Shown here: positions 1,016-18,776 of the stretch, piece after piece | Position numbering within the stretch: position 1 is the first letter of the stretch | Layout: every line of letters starts with the position of its first letter | DNA from: a virus | Taxonomy: Duplodnaviria > Caudoviricetes | DNA length: 40,824 bases | Virus record (IMG/VR): IMGVR_UViG_3300004776_000003 | Coordinates: 1-40,824 of that record | Reading direction: 5' to 3' (one strand) | The notes under the pieces: generated by a model | Database searches by the model: none | Told to the model about the DNA's origin: nothing | The model's input: only the letters and a program-made list of their open reading frames with translations | Translations under genes and position numbers: made by a program

Positions 1016-1950
1016 CGAATTTGCCGGAGACAATAGCATGGAGCCCGCAGATGGCGGCTTTAGTCAAGACGAAATACAATGATGTATTTCAGAGTATTGC
1101 TGAATTTCAAGCCTACCGTTATTGCTGTGAACATACTGGCCTAGATCCGTTAATTCCCGAACTTTGGCCCGTAAGGTATGGTGGAAAGAACCCCAAGATC
1201 GTTTACCAAACCTCGATTGAAGGCTACATCAAGATGGCCATTAAGAGCGGCCACTATGGAGGCTTTCTTCCACCAGCGTGCGTGGTGAGATTCAGAGATG
1301 CCACTAAAGGAGAAGATCTTTTTGAAATCCCTATGAGTCTATACGATGCCAAGAAGCATGAGCTTGTTCGTGCCATCGCCAGGGTAATTAACAAGGAGTT
1401 TCCAGTTCCGCAGGAGTACTTCGCGGACCTCAGTTTCTACAAGAAGAGCGGCGATCAGTTCAGCAATTTTTGGGGCCCAGCAGGTGAGCCTCTAATGCTT
1501 TACAAGTGCGCCCAGGCCGTAGCACTTCGTAGGACGTTCCCCAACGAAACGAGGGGAGTTTACACACAGGAGGAGATGCACCAGGCTGATGAGAAGTTCA
1601 CTGCCACTGTTACCATAGAGAAGCCAGTTAAAAAAGCTCTACCTCCGCCGATGGCACCGCATGTTCCCGAGGACATCGAGCCTCCACCTCCCAAGCCCAA
1701 GTCTCCCCCTGTTATTTCAGTTCAGGAAGAGAAGTGGAAAAAGATCACAGACTATCTGGCAAAGAACGGGTGTACCGAGGAGGGCATTGATTGGGTATGG
1801 GAAACTGTTGTTGCAGCCTACGCTGTCGATGCTATCTGGGATATCCCTGAAGTAGAGATGGAAACAGTGAAAAAGTATGTGTGGGCTGAATTGATTCCGC
1901 AACTGATTGACAACGAAATGATGCCCCCCATCCTCAAGAAAGGAAAGTAA
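1012..1950 (+). CDS. recT: RecT/Bet-family ssDNA annealing protein
   Basis: GLDP..ELW.V.YG, TSIEGY..MA..SG.Y.G, MLYKCA.A.ALRR.FP, GVYT.EEM motifs. Confidence 0.85.
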   Translation: MTNLPETIAWSPQMAALVKTKYNDVFQSIAEFQAYRYCCEHTGLDPLIPELWPVRYGGKNPKIVYQTSIEGYIKMAIKSGHYGGFLPPACVVRFRDATKGEDLFEIPMSLYDAKKHELVRAIARVINKEFPVPQEYFADLSFYKKSGDQFSNFWGPAGEPLMLYKCAQAVALRRTFPNETRGVYTQEEMHQADEKFTATVTIEKPVKKALPPPMAPHVPEDIEPPPPKPKSPPVISVQEEKWKKITDYLAKNGCTEEGIDWVWETVVAAYAVDAIWDIPEVEMETVKKYVWAELIPQLIDNEMMPPILKKGK

Positions 1951-3134
1951 TGGAGCTTACCCCACTCTCAAAAAGTCGTTATGGGGTATGGGAGAAATGC
2001 CACTGGCGGGCTGCATCGGAATACATTGATAAGATCCGGCCCGCCGCTGGGCCTGCTGCCGCTCTTGGTAGAAAGCTCCACGCCCTCCGTAGGAGAGTTC
2101 TTATAGGAACTCTTAACCTAGATACTGCCGTAAGAAACCTTGATAAAGCTGCTCAGGATATCCTCTATGAGTCCATAATGATGGATGAGTATGCAGGCTA
2201 TCCTAACCAGTATTTTGAGAAAGATATCAAAATTGGAATGGACAGTACTTTGGCTCGTCGCGGAAACAAAGCTGTGGCTCGGGCAATTCTTGATAGGATT
2301 ATTCCTATAGACAGACAACACGCCATAGTTGAAGACCTCAAAACAGGCCGCTGGATAGTTGACGACGTTTTTGAGAGGCACCTCTATGTCCTGGCCTACG
2401 TAGTTGCCTATGGACCCACTGTCCATATAAAGTTTTCTAGGGTTTACCCCCAGGTTAAACAAACACAGCATTGGAATTATGAACGGCTAGAACGAGGAGA
2501 CTATTTTGCCTACCGCTGCGTGGAGGATAACGAAACCATAAACCTCTGGGACTGGTTCCTAGAGAAGTGGCGGGATGTCTGCCTCTCTTCCCCGGACCCT
2601 AACCCCGGAGATCAATGCCTTAACTGGTATGGCGCCCCGTGTTACTTCCTCGACAAGAACTGCCCTATTTCATTTTATGCTCCCGTGGAAATGAGCGAGC
2701 ACCAGATAATAGGAAACGCACCATTGGATGCTCTCGTGCAGGTGAGGCGATCCGAAGCTATAGCAGCCATTCCCGAGGATATTATCTCCGCTGCTTACAT
2801 TGCTGTTAAGTCTTTTCAATCAGGCCTCAGTGACGTTGAGAAGAAGGTTAAGGACTGGTGCAAGATAAACAAGAGAACTTTCAAGATCGGCATAGATGAG
2901 TATGGTTGGAGTGAGAAGCCTGGGGAGATCTGGCAGAAAGGGAAGATCATCGAGTTCCTTCAGTCGCAGGGAGTTGATACCTACGGCCTAGGGAAGGCTA
3001 TCAATATCTCCAGATCTTCTCTTAACTACCTTCCAAAAGAACACCACCACCTTATTGATACCATTTTAGAGAGCTTTGTGTTAGAGGGGAACAGAGGCAA
3101 AAGCACCTTTGGGAAGGTAACAAATGAACAATGA
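1950..3134 (+). CDS. PD-(D/E)XK (RecB/Cas4-like) exonuclease
   Basis: S.S......C near N-term, G..LH, ILDRI...IVEDLKTG, C-terminal C..CP; adjacent to recT. Confidence 0.75.
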   Translation: MELTPLSKSRYGVWEKCHWRAASEYIDKIRPAAGPAAALGRKLHALRRRVLIGTLNLDTAVRNLDKAAQDILYESIMMDEYAGYPNQYFEKDIKIGMDSTLARRGNKAVARAILDRIIPIDRQHAIVEDLKTGRWIVDDVFERHLYVLAYVVAYGPTVHIKFSRVYPQVKQTQHWNYERLERGDYFAYRCVEDNETINLWDWFLEKWRDVCLSSPDPNPGDQCLNWYGAPCYFLDKNCPISFYAPVEMSEHQIIGNAPLDALVQVRRSEAIAAIPEDIISAAYIAVKSFQSGLSDVEKKVKDWCKINKRTFKIGIDEYGWSEKPGEIWQKGKIIEFLQSQGVDTYGLGKAINISRSSLNYLPKEHHHLIDTILESFVLEGNRGKSTFGKVTNEQ

Positions 3135-3806: not shown

Positions 3807-4167
3807 AGAACAAAGTGTTGAACTCCTCAGCTCGAAATATGTCTCCCCTTCTCATGCCGACAACAAGGCCGATAAAGTCCTTGTGAGTGTTTTGTCTGTA
3901 GTTGAGGAGGCTATCAACCGGGGACAGTTCGAGCTGAAGGACATTGAAGCGATCTCCGCCGGCCTCATAGTTGTAGGACTCCGGGCTGGAGAGAAACAAC
4001 GAACTCGAAACAAGATCAATTCCGTAGACAAGCAAATCAACCGCATCATGCAGCTAATCAAAATTCGAGAAGAACTGGATGTCCAAAGGCAAATAAACAC
4101 GCATGTCAAGGACTTAGAATCTAAGATTGAGGCTCTAACAGAGGCATCCAAGAATGTCAAAAGTTGA
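3799..4167 (+). CDS. Candidate terminase small subunit (helical/coiled-coil), TTG start
   Basis: GGAGGT RBS (3789-3794) before TTG 3799; directly upstream of and overlapping TerL. Function inferred from position only. Confidence 0.4.
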   Translation: MPKEQSVELLSSKYVSPSHADNKADKVLVSVLSVVEEAINRGQFELKDIEAISAGLIVVGLRAGEKQRTRNKINSVDKQINRIMQLIKIREELDVQRQINTHVKDLESKIEALTEASKNVKS

Positions 4168-5881
4168 CGCAAAAACCCTCGACAAGTTATCCAAGGCAGT
4201 AGACGCTCTTGTTAATTTAAAGAAAAACACCCCTGAAAAAGAATACGACAACATGGCCAGATGGATTCAGAAAAACCTCTGGATAAAGCCCAAAGGTGGG
4301 GGGTTGCAACGATTTGTTTTGAATCGGTTCCAAAAGCGGTTACTGGCGGCTCTTGTCAAAAACTTCAAACAGAAGAAGCCGGTGAGGTTCATTGTCCTCA
4401 AGTCGCGGCAGGTTGGAATATCAACTCTTGTCGAGGCTTTCATGTTCTACTTACTCACCAAATACCCATCCACCACGGGCCTCGTCTTGGCCCACAGAAA
4501 TGATTCAACAAGGAACGTGTTCACTATAGCCCGCCGATTCTGGCAGAACCTCTCGAAGGAAGAGAAGATACCGCTGGAAGGCGGACGCCCGGCCAAGGAT
4601 CATATCGAGTTTATGCCACCGCACTCCTCGGCCTTTTGGGTAATGACTGCCGGCGGTGACGAAATAGGGAGAAGCTGGACACTGAACTTTGTCCACTGTT
4701 CGGAGATGGCCTTTTTCCCGAACCCCGAGCTTACACTCACCTCCCTCAACCAAGCCGTCCCTAAGCCCTCTGAGACGTGGTTCTCGATGTATGTGATCGA
4801 GTCCACGGCCAACGGCCTAAACCTGTTTAAAACCTACTGGGATTTAGCTAAGACGGAAGAGTCGGACTGGCAGGGTTTTTTCTTTTCATGGGTAGATGAT
4901 CCAGCTTGCTCGCTTGAACTACCCCCTGGCCAAGAGCTGAAAAAATCCAAGACAGAGATAGAGTTTCAACTAAAACATCACTGGACAGACGGACAGCTCC
5001 TATGGGCGAGAAAGACATGCCAGGATCAGTGTCATGGGAGCTGGCCGAAATTCTTCCAAGAGTATCCCCCGGATGAGCACACAGCCTTTATTTCCACCGG
5101 GTTCAACGTGTTCGATCCTGAGACTATAGGCAACATGAAAGACGTGGCTGTTAAGACGCCCTCGATCTTCACTGGAGAGATTAAGTTTCTGAGCGCAACT
5201 GAGCCCTACCCGAAACTCGTGGACACCCCGATGGGCTCTCTGACAATCTGGGAGAAGCCCGACACTAATGAAGAGTATGTCCTGGGCGTGGACTGTAGCG
5301 AGGGGATCGGCGCGGACTATTCGGAGATCGTTGTGCTCTCCACCAGAAAAGTGAAGGTTGTCGCGCATTACCGTAATAACCGCATCAAACCTCAAGATTT
5401 CGGTATAGCTTGCTGGCTCCTAGGGGCCTATTATTATTATGGGCTCCTGGGAGTTGAAAGAAATGCCGTGGGCCTTGTTATCCTGGCTGTAGTGGAACAC
5501 GGCCATGGGGATCGCCAGAAATACCCGCAGCTCCGTCGATATCCCAACCTGTATTACGAAACACCCCTGGATAAGAAAACCGTTGAAGAAGGGAACAGGT
5601 TAGGATTCAACACATCGAGAACATCTAAAAAGAATGCCATCGTGAGGCTGGGTGAGCTTATCTCAGACAGAGACATAAAGATATACTCTATACCGTTACT
5701 AACACAGCTCGAAGGACTAATATGGAGCCCCAAAGACGATAACTACATGCAAGAGAATAAAGACCCAGTCTCAGAACTATACAATGATGATGGTGTAATG
5801 TCATTATCTATTGCTAATGCAATGAGAGCATACAATTTTGGCAGAGGCTTCTGCCCCAAACCAACAAGGGAGGATTTCTAA
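4154..5881 (+). CDS. terL: Terminase large subunit
   Basis: LNRFQ, Walker A VLKSRQVGIST, Walker B FVHCSE, coupling motif ESTANG, nuclease YVLGVD..EG...DYS, VERN, DDGVMS. Confidence 0.92.
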   Translation: MSKVDAKTLDKLSKAVDALVNLKKNTPEKEYDNMARWIQKNLWIKPKGGGLQRFVLNRFQKRLLAALVKNFKQKKPVRFIVLKSRQVGISTLVEAFMFYLLTKYPSTTGLVLAHRNDSTRNVFTIARRFWQNLSKEEKIPLEGGRPAKDHIEFMPPHSSAFWVMTAGGDEIGRSWTLNFVHCSEMAFFPNPELTLTSLNQAVPKPSETWFSMYVIESTANGLNLFKTYWDLAKTEESDWQGFFFSWVDDPACSLELPPGQELKKSKTEIEFQLKHHWTDGQLLWARKTCQDQCHGSWPKFFQEYPPDEHTAFISTGFNVFDPETIGNMKDVAVKTPSIFTGEIKFLSATEPYPKLVDTPMGSLTIWEKPDTNEEYVLGVDCSEGIGADYSEIVVLSTRKVKVVAHYRNNRIKPQDFGIACWLLGAYYYYGLLGVERNAVGLVILAVVEHGHGDRQKYPQLRRYPNLYYETPLDKKTVEEGNRLGFNTSRTSKKNAIVRLGELISDRDIKIYSIPLLTQLEGLIWSPKDDNYMQENKDPVSELYNDDGVMSLSIANAMRAYNFGRGFCPKPTREDF

Positions 5882-6123
5882 TGTCGATGCTTCAAGAAGA
5901 TTACATCTGTGGAAACTGTTTATTCTTCGTAGTCAACACACCGGGGGGCGGAGCTGGAGAATGCCGGTTTCACCCTGCCTCTGAAAAAACAGCAACAACT
6001 TCCGTGCTTAAATGGTGCGGCCAAGGCCAATGGTTTAACGAAGATCAAATGATGTATGACGCATACGGAGACTGGATTTACAGAGGTAGAGACGAGGAAG
6101 ATTGTGAGTCCTGTCATGCTTAA
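5881..6123 (+). CDS. Small Cys4 protein, HiPIP-like motif
   Basis: CGNCLFF...GECRFHP...WCGQGQW. Confidence 0.65.
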   Translation: MSMLQEDYICGNCLFFVVNTPGGGAGECRFHPASEKTATTSVLKWCGQGQWFNEDQMMYDAYGDWIYRGRDEEDCESCHA

Positions 6124-6146
6124 TTTCAAAAACATGAAAATAACTC

Positions 6147-6175
6147 TTGACATTTGGAAAAGAACCTGGTATTGA
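6147..6175 (+). promoter_or_regulatory. Sigma70-like promoter
   Basis: TTGACA (6147-6152)-17 nt-TATTGA (6170-6175) preceded by TGG; same TATnGA-type -10 as the promoter at 660. Confidence 0.55.
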
Positions 6176-6179
6176 ACTT

Positions 6180-6254
6180 CCCGGGTTAGTTAGTTTTGTG
6201 TGCGAGATTGGGCCTTACCGTGTTTCCTTTCCCCCAGTCTCGCACTTTTTTTTT
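6180..6254 (+). ncRNA. Candidate ~75-nt small RNA ending in an intrinsic terminator, with an anti-Shine-Dalgarno loop
   Basis: 13-bp stem 6200-6212/6233-6245, 20-nt loop CCTTACCGTGTTTCCTTTCC, then T9 (6246-6254); promoter immediately upstream. Confidence 0.55.
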
Positions 6255-6271
6255 ACAAGAGAGGGTGTAAA

Positions 6272-6694
6272 ATGACAAGAAGAAGGGGTGTTGTCTATGA
6301 TGTGACGTGTCTCATCTGTGAAACTAAATTTCAATCAACATACAGTCACCATCTTTATTGCTCTTCCCCTTGCCGCATAAAAGCCAAATCTCTCAGAGAG
6401 ATTCAGCGTCGCAAAGAAAACAGAAAAGTTAATCCTCTCCCCAGAAAAACCAAACCACCTAAACTACCACAAAAATCTAAAGAGAAAGATAATAGTCTTG
6501 AGCTTGTCCGAATTGGTTTGAGAAAGATCGTGGCAGGTTACATAGAGTGCCTTCGTTGTGGCAGGATCTTTAAGTCCAAAGACATCCGCAACACAAGGAT
6601 ATGCCTCACCTGTCATAACAACGTACCGGACATTGCGGACCTCGGTGGGTATGAAGTCAACACCTGGGGAGCAAACGGAAAAAGGAGAAGATAA
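6272..6694 (+). CDS. Zinc-finger protein
   Basis: CxxC..YCSxxC and CxxC..CxxC motifs. ATG 6272 (GAGGG RBS) preferred over GTG 6200. Confidence 0.65.
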   Translation: MTRRRGVVYDVTCLICETKFQSTYSHHLYCSSPCRIKAKSLREIQRRKENRKVNPLPRKTKPPKLPQKSKEKDNSLELVRIGLRKIVAGYIECLRCGRIFKSKDIRNTRICLTCHNNVPDIADLGGYEVNTWGANGKRRR

Positions 6695-6876
6695 TGCAAA
6701 CGTCTACCGCTACAAAAAAATCCTACGTCATCACGATAAGCATCAGCGAGGGAGAGGCTGCTCTCCTACGGAATGTTTATCGTGAGATAGTAAAAAGACT
6801 TGTCCTCTCTCCTGAGGAAACAGAGGCAGTCAAAGCCATTTGTATGGCTATTCCAAAACCAGAGGAGAGTCTATAA
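6694..6876 (+). CDS. Hypothetical protein
   Basis: TAATG coupling on both sides, AAGGAG RBS. Confidence 0.6.
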   Translation: MQTSTATKKSYVITISISEGEAALLRNVYREIVKRLVLSPEETEAVKAICMAIPKPEESL

Positions 6877-7559
6877 TGGAGTCCGCTCCCAAATTGTCAG
6901 TAACCGAGGAGAAGGATGGCCTCCTTGTCCTCTCCTCCCCTGCCGCCCCCCGGTTCAAACTATTTTCCATGGGACTAGGGTATGCCGATCCAACTGTAGA
7001 CGAATCTCTTCATGCCTGCGTCCTGGCCGGCAAGACTTCGGATGATCGCATAATTATCATGGCTGAGTTTCTGGGAATCCTCGATGACGTGCTCTGGGAA
7101 TGTGTGAACCTGAAGGACAGGTTCCTCGTGAAGAGGTTGTGGGTTGACACGAGGGACAAGGAACTCCTCCGACTCATCCTGGATATGGACGGCCTCACCA
7201 AATACCGGAACCTGGGACTGGATAATTTCGGATCGCCTATCTACGAACATTTGGCAACAACCTGGCCTTGGTTTCAAAGTCGAGATACCCTCCTCTTTGT
7301 CACAGGCGTTCCAGGCTTCATCCAAGCCTCGCCACTGGGCGGAATAGATAGGCTCGTGGGAATGGTTAAGAAAGGTGAGCTTACGCTCCACTCGTCTTGT
7401 GGGCAGTGTGCGTGGATCCTCGATCAACAAACTGTCGGGGAGGTTATCAAGAGGCCACTGACGAAGGCTATGGTTTATGCCATTAATGGGTTCAGCTCCG
7501 AGGATGAGGCTGATAGGAAACCTTTTAAGCCGACAAACATTTATGGAAATTTGACATGA
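6876..7559 (+). CDS. Terminase RNase H-like nuclease-domain homolog, apparently lacking catalytic acids
   Basis: MGLGYADP...ACVLAGK..DDRIIIMAEF...WVD...GIDRL......L.LH..C...AMVYA follows the TerL C-terminal domain layout. Confidence 0.45.
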   Translation: MESAPKLSVTEEKDGLLVLSSPAAPRFKLFSMGLGYADPTVDESLHACVLAGKTSDDRIIIMAEFLGILDDVLWECVNLKDRFLVKRLWVDTRDKELLRLILDMDGLTKYRNLGLDNFGSPIYEHLATTWPWFQSRDTLLFVTGVPGFIQASPLGGIDRLVGMVKKGELTLHSSCGQCAWILDQQTVGEVIKRPLTKAMVYAINGFSSEDEADRKPFKPTNIYGNLT

Positions 7560-15859: not shown

Positions 15860-16360
15860 TGTTCATTGTTCAAACAGCGAACAAACAAGTAGGCGAAAAC
15901 AGGTGGAATTCGGGACACGAGAACACGAGCCCCATTTCTAAGCAACCTTGGACTTTTTATATATAAGCGTACCGACAGGCTCAGGGGGGTCCCAGCCCGG
16001 CCTGGCCCGCCTCCCTGGACCTGGCTGCCTGGCCGCACATGATCCGCCCATGTAACACAGGCTAACCCTCGGCTATCCTTAATCATACGCAACGCAACGC
16101 ACAACGAAAGTCCTTCCGCTTTGATTGCCCATACTCGGAAGCACAATTTTCGGCCCAAAAAGTGCCTCGTTATGTCTTGGGTGACATAAGCCTATCAAAG
16201 TAGAGCTACACATTCCTCCACACATTCTTTTACACACACATCGTACGCGTACTAACTCCTTGTCCTACTACCTTGTGTCTACCTAGACATAGCAATCCTC
16301 CTCATATCCTTGTTCTTAGATGCAACTTTACCTAAACTTTATTTCCCTACATCCCTATAT
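15860..16360. other. Non-coding region, putative physical genome end / packaging-site region
   Basis: No credible ORF. TTATATATAA palindrome (15957-15966), GGGGGGTCCC followed by a GC-rich CCTGG tract, and a switch from G/A-rich to C-rich + strand near 15990. An early-type cassette follows. Confidence 0.35.
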
Positions 16361-16364
16361 TTTG

Positions 16365-16392
16365 GGAACTCTCAGGAAACCCCGTTGTCTAA
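16365..16392 (+). promoter_or_regulatory. ECF (sigmaE-type) promoter
   Basis: GGAACT (16365-16370)-16 nt-GTCTAA (16387-16392). Confidence 0.55.
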
Positions 16393-16588
16393 ACCACTAA
16401 AAGCCAAAAAAAGGAAACAAACCACACTCAACAACTTGCAACATCCAGTTAGCACCACTAGACAACAAGTCCTTAAGAGTTAGGACACCGTAACCTAACC
16501 TTAAATGTTACGGGATTATCGCAAGAGTAACAGCTTGCTTGATAAGGCCTATTGGGGCCGAAATAATCTAACCTTGAAAGGAAACACA

Positions 16589-16753
16589 ATGTTTAATCAG
16601 GACTTCACCATGGAGGAGTTTCACCGTATCATGTTGGATGCCGACACCTTGCTGGACTCCAATGACACTGACTACCTCGAAGCCGTTGCCGAAGCTGGTG
16701 ACTACTTGGACCGACACTTCATCGACTTCATCTCAACACCACTTACTTTTTAA
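16589..16753 (+). CDS. 54-aa acidic early protein
   Basis: GAAAGGAAACAC RBS then ATG 16589; strongly acidic. Confidence 0.6.
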   Translation: MFNQDFTMEEFHRIMLDADTLLDSNDTDYLEAVAEAGDYLDRHFIDFISTPLTF

Positions 16754-16786
16754 CATCCTCTAACACTTAAGAAAGGAAACAAGACT

Positions 16787-16966
16787 ATGGCAACAAAAGG
16801 CATGACTATCGAAAAAAAGGGTAACAGCATCCTTATTACTATTCCCGATGTAACGAAAAACTTTGGTCCATCAGCTTCCGGCAAAACTTTGATTATTGCC
16901 ACAACTTCAGGGGCCGAAAAGATTGATGGAATATCTGTCAACTTGAACGTGTATGTAGCGAAGTAG
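16787..16966 (+). CDS. 59-aa conserved small beta-rich protein (GPSASGKT...NVY family; not in ORF track)
   Basis: MATKGMTIEKKGNSILITIPDVTKNFGPSASGKTLIIATTSGAEKIDGISVNLNVYVAK; GAAAGGAAACA RBS. Confidence 0.75.
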   Translation: MATKGMTIEKKGNSILITIPDVTKNFGPSASGKTLIIATTSGAEKIDGISVNLNVYVAK

Positions 16967-17054
16967 TTAACTCTTGAAACCTTGCCCTGGACTTAGCTAC
17001 CAGGGCAATCTTCAGGTGTTAAAGCCTGTTTATGTCCCATTGAAAGGAAACACT

Positions 17055-18185
17055 ATGAGAATTCACAACAACGATCTTCAGGATGCCTTGAAGCGTATCA
17101 AGCCTATCGTATCCGGCAAGGTTTACTTGCCTATCCTTAACCATGTCCTTATTGAATCAACACCATCAGGAGCCGTTTACCTCTACGCAACTAACCTTGA
17201 CACTGGTGTTAGAATTCAACTCAACGCAAGCCTGGACCTGGATATTGAAACTGAATTCAGGCGGGCATTGCCTTATGAAGCCTTGAATTCTTTTAGTAAT
17301 AGCCTGGATGCTACCGATTCAATTAGGATCCGCAAGCCTATTGACGAACATTCTTACGCGTACATCATGGAATCAGTATCCGGATCAGCTTCAACTAGGA
17401 TTCAAACGATTCCAGCTGAAGACTTCCCAACGTTTGACTTTTACCACACGCCTGAAGGACATGATACTGGCACTGGTGAAAACACCGATATCAACATCCT
17501 TGCCGGTATCCTTTATTGTGCAAGTGCGGACGACTCCAGGTTTAACCTTAACGGGATCTACCTGGATAGCAAAACCAACTTGTTAGTTGCAACTGATGGA
17601 CACCGACTTGCTACGCGTACTATTCCACAGGTGTTTAACCAACTTCAGACACCAGTTATCATACCTAGGTCCGGGATAAAACACCTTGAAGTGTTTTTCA
17701 AGGGGACTTCAGGTTACATTCAAGGTTACGTCACAGCGAAGCGGATCATGATATCCAACTTGTCTCGAACTATGGTTTGGACTTGCCGCCTTATGGATGG
17801 TGAATATCCGGAATACAACAAAGTCATCCCTGTAGACTTGAAGGAAACTTGCACGTTGCCGGCAAAGGAAACAAGGAAGTTTCTCAAGGGATTAAATATC
17901 AGCAAGAAGGAATATGAGAAAAATAAAGGTGTCACCATCAAATCCAATTGTTCCGGGATTAATATCTTTCGTAAAGACTCCGAAGGTAACACCACTACAG
18001 GCAACTTCAAGGGAACATTTCCTGAAGACTTTGAGATCATACTCAACAGGAACTACCTCGTTGAGCTTATCGATCATACTGACAACTTGACGTTACTCAG
18101 GCAATCAGGTTGTTCAAGTGGTGGTCCCGTTGCTATCAAGTCTTTCAATGGCAATCTCGATATCCTAATGCCCATGAGGAAGTAA
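17055..18185 (+). CDS. dnaN: DNA polymerase III beta sliding clamp
   Basis: LPILNHVLIE, ATNLD, AEDFP, DDSRFNLNGIYL, VATDGHRLA, RLMDGEYP.Y.KVIP, N..YL, LMPMR; ATG 17055 follows GAAAGGAAACAC. Confidence 0.92.
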   Translation: MRIHNNDLQDALKRIKPIVSGKVYLPILNHVLIESTPSGAVYLYATNLDTGVRIQLNASLDLDIETEFRRALPYEALNSFSNSLDATDSIRIRKPIDEHSYAYIMESVSGSASTRIQTIPAEDFPTFDFYHTPEGHDTGTGENTDINILAGILYCASADDSRFNLNGIYLDSKTNLLVATDGHRLATRTIPQVFNQLQTPVIIPRSGIKHLEVFFKGTSGYIQGYVTAKRIMISNLSRTMVWTCRLMDGEYPEYNKVIPVDLKETCTLPAKETRKFLKGLNISKKEYEKNKGVTIKSNCSGINIFRKDSEGNTTTGNFKGTFPEDFEIILNRNYLVELIDHTDNLTLLRQSGCSSGGPVAIKSFNGNLDILMPMRK

Positions 18186-18186
18186 C

Positions 18187-18264
18187 ATGAGAGTTCTCAA
18201 CTGGACTTTGATGTTGTCCTTCATGGTGTATGTGTCTCTGGCCTATTACGCTAACAAAAAATAA
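18187..18264 (+). CDS. 25-aa hydrophobic peptide
   Basis: MRVLNWTLMLSFMVYVSLAYYANKK; GAGG RBS, starts just after the dnaN stop. Confidence 0.4.
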   Translation: MRVLNWTLMLSFMVYVSLAYYANKK

Positions 18265-18381
18265 CCTCTACCTTTTAACCTTCGGGATGGACCGAGTTCC
18301 ATCCTGGAATTAAGCGGTAAAGGAATCCGCTTTTATAAGCGCCGAGTGCGTTAAATACCAACATGGAAAGGAAACAAGACT

Positions 18382-18648
18382 ATGGCAAGATTTAGGGGAA
18401 CTGTCCAGGGAAACAGGAGCGAGGCCTCAAGGTTAGGACACAAACGCCTTGTGACATCATGCAACACATGGGACATAGGCGTTGATTGTCAGGCGTACAT
18501 CGATATGGGCGGCAACGATGTTATCGTTGTTTGGGTAACAGGCGGATCTCATAATGACACCAGGTTAAAACTTATTGCAACAGTGCGGAAAGTCAACGGC
18601 CAGATTGAGATTGAAACAAACGAGTCAGTGACTTCCCTTGCGGAATAA
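18382..18648 (+). CDS. Phage hypothetical protein (MARFRGTVQG.R..ASRLG family)
   Basis: GGAAAGGAAACA RBS; followed by a terminator. Confidence 0.7.
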   Translation: MARFRGTVQGNRSEASRLGHKRLVTSCNTWDIGVDCQAYIDMGGNDVIVVWVTGGSHNDTRLKLIATVRKVNGQIEIETNESVTSLAE

Positions 18649-18656
18649 CAACCACC

Positions 18657-18687
18657 ACCAGGGCGCCCTCCGGCCCTGGTTTTTTTT
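18657..18687 (+). terminator. Intrinsic terminator closing the early cassette
   Basis: ACCAGGGC/GCCCTGGT stem followed by a T-run. Confidence 0.8.
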
Positions 18688-18776
18688 CTTGCCTCCCGCT
18701 TCTCTCTCTTTCATCCGCAAAGACGAGGGCGATACGAAAGACGAGGGCGTGCGGTGGGCTATTGGAAGGAGACAAC

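Follow-up and report, generated by a model that had tools for sequence, protein, structure and literature searches.

The loop of a hairpin encoded in a phage genome matches, in a specific and non-random manner, a ribosome-binding site (RBS) tag shared by four consecutive genes of the same genome. Throughout the text, the window refers to the whole stretch of 40,824 nucleotides that was analysed. We consider it probable that an RNA ending at position 6254 uses this loop to pair with all four tagged RBSs and thereby blocks initiation, which would result in a delayed shut-off of the operon, and that its stem also terminates transcription before the replication genes.

The window comprises an entire IMG/VR record, which is linear and estimated to be 58% complete, and freshwater or lake are the labels of the sequencing runs containing the phage; the 13 runs listed include no RNA data set. 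Its genes encode an HU-like protein, RecT, an exonuclease, a RuvC-like resolvase, the large terminase subunit (4154-5881) and a DnaB helicase, in addition to a DnaN-like clamp, a tyrosine recombinase and tail and adaptor proteins. As a hint of the host, the genome collection provided one weak match only, and scans of viral contigs with single proteins and clade profiles recovered the same phage, one close relative and otherwise distant terminases. Since in related loci a homologue of the gene at 6876-7559 directly follows the terminase, the region 5881-6875, which contains the hairpin element, is an insertion in the window lineage; the relative L088 carries a different insertion at this position.

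The hairpin element and its match to a tagged operon

The features of the element and of its putative targets are compiled in Table 1. The promoter hexamers with their 17-nucleotide spacer, the 13-bp stem, the 20-nucleotide loop and the run of nine T residues are all found where the preliminary description had placed them. The independent promoter implied by its view of a self-contained unit is putative, as the -10 box TATTGA is weak: it lacks the conserved final T, and the site is absent from the list of our promoter scan. The same defect is found in the promoter of the HU operon at position 660 (TTGACA-17-TATGGA), and since the positional counterpart of this site in L088 (TTGACA-17-TATGAT) is near consensus, sites with a weak -10 box may function in the phage of the window. 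Three sites of the form CTTGACA-16/18-TAT, located at 660 (+), 6147 (+) and 15348 (-), have a -10 box that ends without its final T in each case and may constitute a common non-canonical or activator-dependent class of promoters.

Table 1. Coordinates of the hairpin element and of the sites complementary to its loop
Feature	Position	Strand	Remarks
Candidate promoter TTGACA-17-TATTGA	6147-6175	+	-35 at 6147-6152 perfect; -10 at 6170-6175 weak
Single-stranded 5' leader of predicted RNA	6183-6199	+	unpaired in fold; putative start; variable
Stem of 13 bp with loop of 20 nt	6200-6245	+	top score among 8 terminator-type hairpins in window
Stem arms	6200-6212 / 6233-6245	+	13 bp, one G-U
Loop	6213-6232	+	20 nt, unpaired
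Seed	6220-6232	+	13 nt complementary to shared RBS tag
U-tract (T9)	6246-6254	+	directly 3' of stem
Target RBS 1	16576-16587	+	12 nt; precedes ATG 16589 of 54-aa acidic ORF 16589-16753
Target RBS 2	16771-16781	+	11 nt; precedes ATG 16787 of 59-aa ORF 16787-16966
Target RBS 3	17042-17053	+	12 nt, extendable across AUG; precedes ATG 17055 of DnaN-like clamp gene 17055-18185
Target RBS 4	18365-18376	+	12 nt; precedes ATG 18382 of 88-aa phrog_5927 ORF 18382-18648
Intrinsic terminator ending the four-gene operon	18657-18688	+	from terminator scan
Secondary match at exonuclease RBS	1938-1946	+	9 nt; transcription unit upstream of hairpin

An RNA comprising positions 6181-6254 is predicted to fold into a single hairpin (z -3.73), with none of 200 shuffled sequences folding equally well, and keeping its loop open costs only 0.26 kcal/mol. 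It combines the GC-rich stem and subsequent U-tract of an intrinsic terminator with a loop that is bigger than usual and, at 20 nucleotides, exceeds the size limit of our terminator scan. In a read-through RNA, weak pairing would be possible between the U-tract at 6246-6254 and the RBS that serves the gene at 6272. These properties bear on the possibility that control is reversed and that abundant early mRNAs bind to the nascent loop and hinder the closure of the terminator, thereby causing read-through into the replication genes from 6272. The seed indeed adjoins the 3' arm of the stem, a promoter, a short leader and a terminator are found directly ahead of the replication block, and the hairpins of relatives are located just upstream of more co-directional genes. 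Such attenuation nevertheless appears very improbable in light of the high stability of the stem (-22.4 kcal/mol in the plus-strand fold) and the fact that no alternative antiterminator fold appears at the element; we also know of no phage precedent for attenuation controlled by a target mRNA.

In another account, the tag would be the site of an RNA- or DNA-binding protein of the phage or its host, for which RegA, CsrA and stoperators are the families to compare with, and the inverted copy would act as a further site or as decoy. This account draws on the fold of the minus strand, which is nearly as stable (-20.5 kcal/mol) and would expose the purine tag in its loop, and on the RBS-overlapping SAS repeats of mycobacteriophages, which have been left open as sites for either protein or RNA (PMC3203893). 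We assign it little probability, since U-tract and promoter are found on the plus strand only, the G-U pair of the stem favours the same strand and no minus-strand gene start follows the reversed tag. For the latter reason, we have also rejected a minus-strand gene that would use the reversed tag as its RBS.

The specificity of the match is reflected in its distribution. When both strands of the 40.8 kb are searched for exact complements of the loop, the four longest (11-12 nucleotides) coincide with the RBSs of four consecutive genes of the operon 16589-18648, which confirms three matches of 12 nucleotides and one of 11 described previously, as well as the one of 9 nucleotides at the RBS of the exonuclease. 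The sequence GAAAGGAAAC has exactly five occurrences, the four operon RBSs and the loop. Among 49 start regions, these four match the loop over at least 11 nucleotides and none of the other 45 over 10 or more, with a maximum of 9. A count of chance matches, which the initial proposal had called for, yielded 40 of 200,000 composition-preserving shuffles of the loop that reach at least 11 nucleotides on four starts, corresponding to a rate of 2e-4 or about 2e-3 across the eight hairpins; if the anti-SD core TCCTTTC is kept constant, 1,418 of 200,000 (0.7%) match equally well. If all 81,608 20-mers of the genome are considered, 92 reach a match of 10 nucleotides on four starts; these belong to eight places, among which the loop is the sole one on the plus strand. 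The loop scores a z of 7.5 for run length and of -7.4 for energy against its own operon, compared to at most +1.0 for runs against 10 other start sets, and the match extends 4-6 nucleotides beyond what SD function needs. The element carries the unpaired C/U-rich seed complementary to the SD regions of targets that is expected of trans-acting RNAs with an anti-SD loop and a mode of action like that of LhrC or RsaE.

The claim that most other genes would escape such an RNA is supported by exact pairing and less so by energy: with accessibility counted, the four targets rank 1, 2, 5 and 10 among the 49 starts, two starts of structural genes outrank two of the targets, and imperfect duplexes elsewhere in the genome reach -20.8 kcal/mol, equal in strength to the targets. 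Cofolding was discarded, as it is unable to model pairing inside a closed loop.

Two further copies of the tag core, each of 10 nucleotides, are found away from starts at 16410-16419 in the leader region of the operon and at 17864-17873 within the DnaN-like gene. The encoded clamp scores below the NCBIfam cut-off, shares about 30% identity with most relatives and is located amid small ORFs of unknown function and not with the replication genes. Homologues of the 88-residue phrog_5927 protein are found among the small hypothetical genes of mycobacteriophages, and such regions are early in these phages. By analogy, the operon 16589-18648 is likely to be early. It is preceded by a long non-coding stretch (15860-16570), where a G+C-rich patch is followed by C/A-rich runs. 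Stretches that resemble it are also found in L088 and L090, and it could mark an end of the genome or a region for packaging.

Strain variants, related loci and unrelated phages

Three sequencing runs, X5, X7 and X8, contain variants of the phage. Compared to the window, a contig of X5 shows 25 substitutions and 5 gap letters between 5800 and 6271, and among the changes listed none falls within 6128-6175, which includes the promoter, or 6194-6245, which includes the hairpin. At the same time, changes are listed at 6127, the upstream ORF has at least 16 substitutions and a 3-nucleotide deletion, the leader (6176-6193) carries five substitutions and one insertion, the T-run is shorter by one T, and 6272-6514, the 5' half of the next gene, is exchanged for other DNA. 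The conservation of the element in a diverged strain thus extends to hairpin and promoter among the changes listed, while its neighbours diverge; the probability of zero changes among those listed amounts to about 0.08 if the hairpin (46 nucleotides) is taken by itself and to 0.017 if the promoter is included. As for the operon with the targets, a tag core of 10-11 nucleotides is retained at the sites covered by contigs of X5, X7 and X8, again among the changes listed and with less certainty at site 1. Two variants gain a G that lengthens the pairing, and in one a pair is converted to G-U.

In one X5 contig (corresponding to 16585-17067 of the window), RBS 1 is fused straight to the DnaN-like gene and two small ORFs are skipped, which suggests a cassette exchange at the tag, and the tag may therefore be an exchange point. 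This junction lends some weight to the view that the hairpin is an ordinary terminator, whose loop arose by chance or is the inverted relic of an RBS repeat prone to recombination, as does the ease with which pyrimidine-rich loops pair with purine-rich RBSs. We regard it as the least probable of the accounts considered, given the low shuffle rates described above, the cost of a 20-nucleotide loop in a plain terminator and the retention of similar loops in five lineages.

These lineages (L085; L086, L087 and L090; L088 and L089; L112 and L113; L126) comprise nine loci with a common gene order, whose terminases are 32-53% identical. All nine contain, within about 370 nucleotides upstream of the RuvC-like gene, a stem of 10-14 bp with a C/U-rich loop of 31-46 nucleotides, and the five that were folded show z values between -2.4 and -4.9. 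Large-loop hairpins with anti-SD motifs in their loops thus recur in relatives, combined with stems of unrelated sequence and U-tracts that are strong in some loci and weaker in others. At the hairpin, L088 does not differ from L089 over 62 nucleotides, compared to a divergence of 12% upstream. A strict scan that covered 172 loci (1.88 Mb) detected 56 large-loop hairpins, six of which have a loop with at least 70% pyrimidines, and five of these six are the window element or its analogues. The window lacks a hairpin at the position found in relatives, despite the homology of its ORF at 3124 to a hairpin-carrying ORF of L088. The element was thus relocated or replaced, and the hairpins of relatives, at their other position, are no more than possible homologues of that of the window.

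The covariation between loop and tag that had been proposed as a check was not found in relatives. Their loops are generic anti-SD sequences, and none of the nine showed a matching multi-gene tag in the sequence compared, which for L085, L114 and L126 comprises part of the contig. The loops of L090 and L088 reach z values of 2-2.8 with many start sets, some of which belong to other phages, the loop of L085 fits none of the start sets compared, and no long shared tag was found in the nine-gene operon on the opposite strand of L090. The window loop scores a z of -0.3 against the L090 operon and the L090 loop one of 0.4 against that of the window, a lack of fit that weakly suggests matching within lineages and not covariation.

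In an alternative account, the element would be a terminator located at the end of an operon, its anti-SD loop would be a general one that feeds back mainly on an RBS within its own upstream transcript, and the match to the tag would be secondary or later. In relatives, the hairpins come directly after recombination genes. The best loop match is a single RBS in the upstream operon in L090 (9 nucleotides, RecT), L112 (11 nucleotides) and L126 (8 nucleotides), the exonuclease RBS of the window matches over 9 nucleotides, and the autoregulatory RNAs OppZ and CarZ offer a precedent (PMC7398697). We still consider such upstream autoregulation unlikely as the main role, since in the window the four operon sites with their 11-12 nucleotides clearly exceed the exonuclease site, the best match of the L088 loop is located downstream, and the match of the window loop runs 4-6 nucleotides past SD function.

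A shared tag alone does not yield such a loop match, as illustrated by five unrelated phages with a phrog_5927-like gene and tags of their own: none of these (one of which is only 23% complete) contains a terminator loop complementary to its tag, with a maximum of 6 nucleotides, and the circuit is therefore not universal. Around the phrog_5927-like gene, L212, L219 and L209 carry strong private RBS tags on 3-8 genes without an anti-tag terminator loop. An exact scan for the loop followed by a T-run returned 42 loci, one of which is the phage of the window and nine of which are other hairpins with a short UUUCCUUUC loop, the rest not being hairpins of this kind. In several T4-like phages (L167:7777, L172, L180, L182, L191, L192, L194 and L201), a terminator with a UUUCCUUUC loop is found after a gene that, as judged by eye, we take to encode a gp32/SSB-like protein. 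The stems of these hairpins differ, and several of the small genes upstream use GAAAGGA as RBS. The same loop is also present in L181, a phage of another kind.

Proposed mechanism of operon shut-off

The predicted RNA exposes, in unpaired form, the exact complement of a tag that overlaps the SD sequences of four operon genes. It could originate as a transcript of about 72 nucleotides that starts at the TTGACA promoter, or the HU-RecT-exonuclease-RuvC-terminase transcript could provide it as its 3' end after termination at the hairpin; in L085 and in L086, L087 and L090, the analogous hairpin immediately follows the stop codon of the exonuclease and leaves no space for a promoter. Pairing would nucleate in the loop and form a helix of 11-12 bp covering SD and spacer, which in case of the DnaN-like gene may extend to up to 16 bp across the AUG. 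With its four sites paired in trans, 30S loading would be blocked and the likely early operon turned off as a unit. Because the hairpin sits among genes for recombination and replication, the RNA would accumulate after its target operon, which would provide delayed negative feedback, and the same stem would serve as terminator ahead of the replication block. The timing of this switch may be early-to-late. For a role in lysogeny, which the preliminary description had offered as an alternative, a recombinase encoded in the window is the sole support, and no repressor was identified in the window of this 58% complete genome.

As a more general and tentative proposition, which we hold to be plausible if not quite probable, a private RBS barcode would define a regulon that is shut by a single hairpin-loop RNA, the latter would have arisen in the window lineage by the retuning of a generic anti-SD loop, and it would represent the kind of partner that is missing for SAS repeats. 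To our knowledge, early-gene shut-off is understood for few systems among phages that encode neither a polymerase nor a sigma factor of their own. If true, a circuit of barcode and reader would constitute a compact, protein-free means of early shut-off and a programmable tool to repress several genes together.

Comparison with known RNAs and repeats

The c4 RNA acts in trans through unpaired loops. That of phages P1 and P7 constitutes the Rfam family RF01695 (PMC2864571), from which our element is distinguished by the lack of a match to the covariance model and by its single hairpin in place of a multi-stem architecture. A closer likeness is found in LhrC of Listeria monocytogenes and other RNAs with UCCC motifs, where CU-rich motifs in loops are described to bind the SD and block translation initiation (PMC4132741), and the window element likewise carries a CU-rich loop motif complementary to SD sequences. 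LhrC is bacterial and multicopy and uses three UCCC sites for imperfect pairing with host mRNAs (PMC4132741), whereas the window encodes one phage hairpin without UCCC seed that perfectly matches 11-12 nucleotides of the private tag of its own operon. With one seed only and no Rfam match at the element (E <= 5), it falls outside the LhrC family proper; relatives gave no Rfam match either. The element would work like an sRNA with a CU-rich anti-SD loop, and it belongs neither to LhrC or c4 nor to another of the Rfam families tested.

OppZ and CarZ are autoregulatory sRNAs of Vibrio cholerae that derive from 3'UTRs (PMC7398697). Their mode of action, where an RNA from the end of an operon pairs with mRNA to inhibit translation, would fit the position of the hairpins in relatives. 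They target their own transcript and require processing by RNase E (PMC7398697), in contrast to the element of the window, whose main targets reside 10 kb away in another operon. The upstream match of the window (9 nucleotides) is inferior to the distant ones, and in L090, L112 and L126 the best match is found upstream. Phage-encoded RNAs that control development include P22 sar, lambda OOP, PreS and VpdS (PMC12197685; bioRxiv 2024.10.31.621285). Sar and OOP have a single transcript each as their partner and PreS mainly acts on host genes, and none of the phage RNAs surveyed in the cited portion of that source silences a whole phage operon via a shared RBS tag (PMC12197685). Likewise, the literature covered, which consists mainly of open-access main texts, revealed no tagged operon for which silencing by a phage RNA had been tested.

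The closest parallel to the tag itself is found in Cluster K mycobacteriophages. Pope et al. (2011) described SAS repeats that overlap RBSs, with one copy in opposite orientation in four K1 phages (PMC3203893), and their function is called unknown in papers from 2011 and 2024 (PMC3203893, PMC11373665). In the stretches examined, Adephagia and Anaya each contain 16 forward and one reverse SAS, and the lone reverse copy makes up the apical loop of a hairpin located between genes (L235:38683-38695 in Adephagia, L236:34871-34883 in Anaya), as it does in L238 and L240. In Adephagia, this hairpin is located between genes 92 and 93, where late transcription apparently begins (PMC11373665). No reverse-SAS hairpin loop is found in the stretch of Pixie examined. 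Among four more distant matches from 144 records, the loop is kept in LastHope and SgtBeansprout, replaced by a variant anti-SD sequence at the same position in Amohnition and absent in Hurricane, which amounts to a clear loop in 4 of 7, a variant in 1 and none in 2. These sequences make the reverse-SAS hairpin a candidate antisense partner of SAS.

As in Cluster K, the window combines an RBS-overlapping tag on non-structural genes with a single copy in opposite orientation (PMC3203893, PMC11373665); its tag is asymmetric, located 3-9 nucleotides before the starts and conserved beyond the SD, with four copies in one operon. It differs from SAS in its number of copies (4 compared to 11-19), in its sequence, which departs from the 13-bp consensus with extended inverted repeats of Cluster K (PMC3203893), and in its occurrence in an unrelated phage (PMC3203893, PMC11373665). 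The K1 phages lend support to the class of mechanism by analogy only, and the proposed reading would in turn provide the SAS elements with a concrete and testable role.
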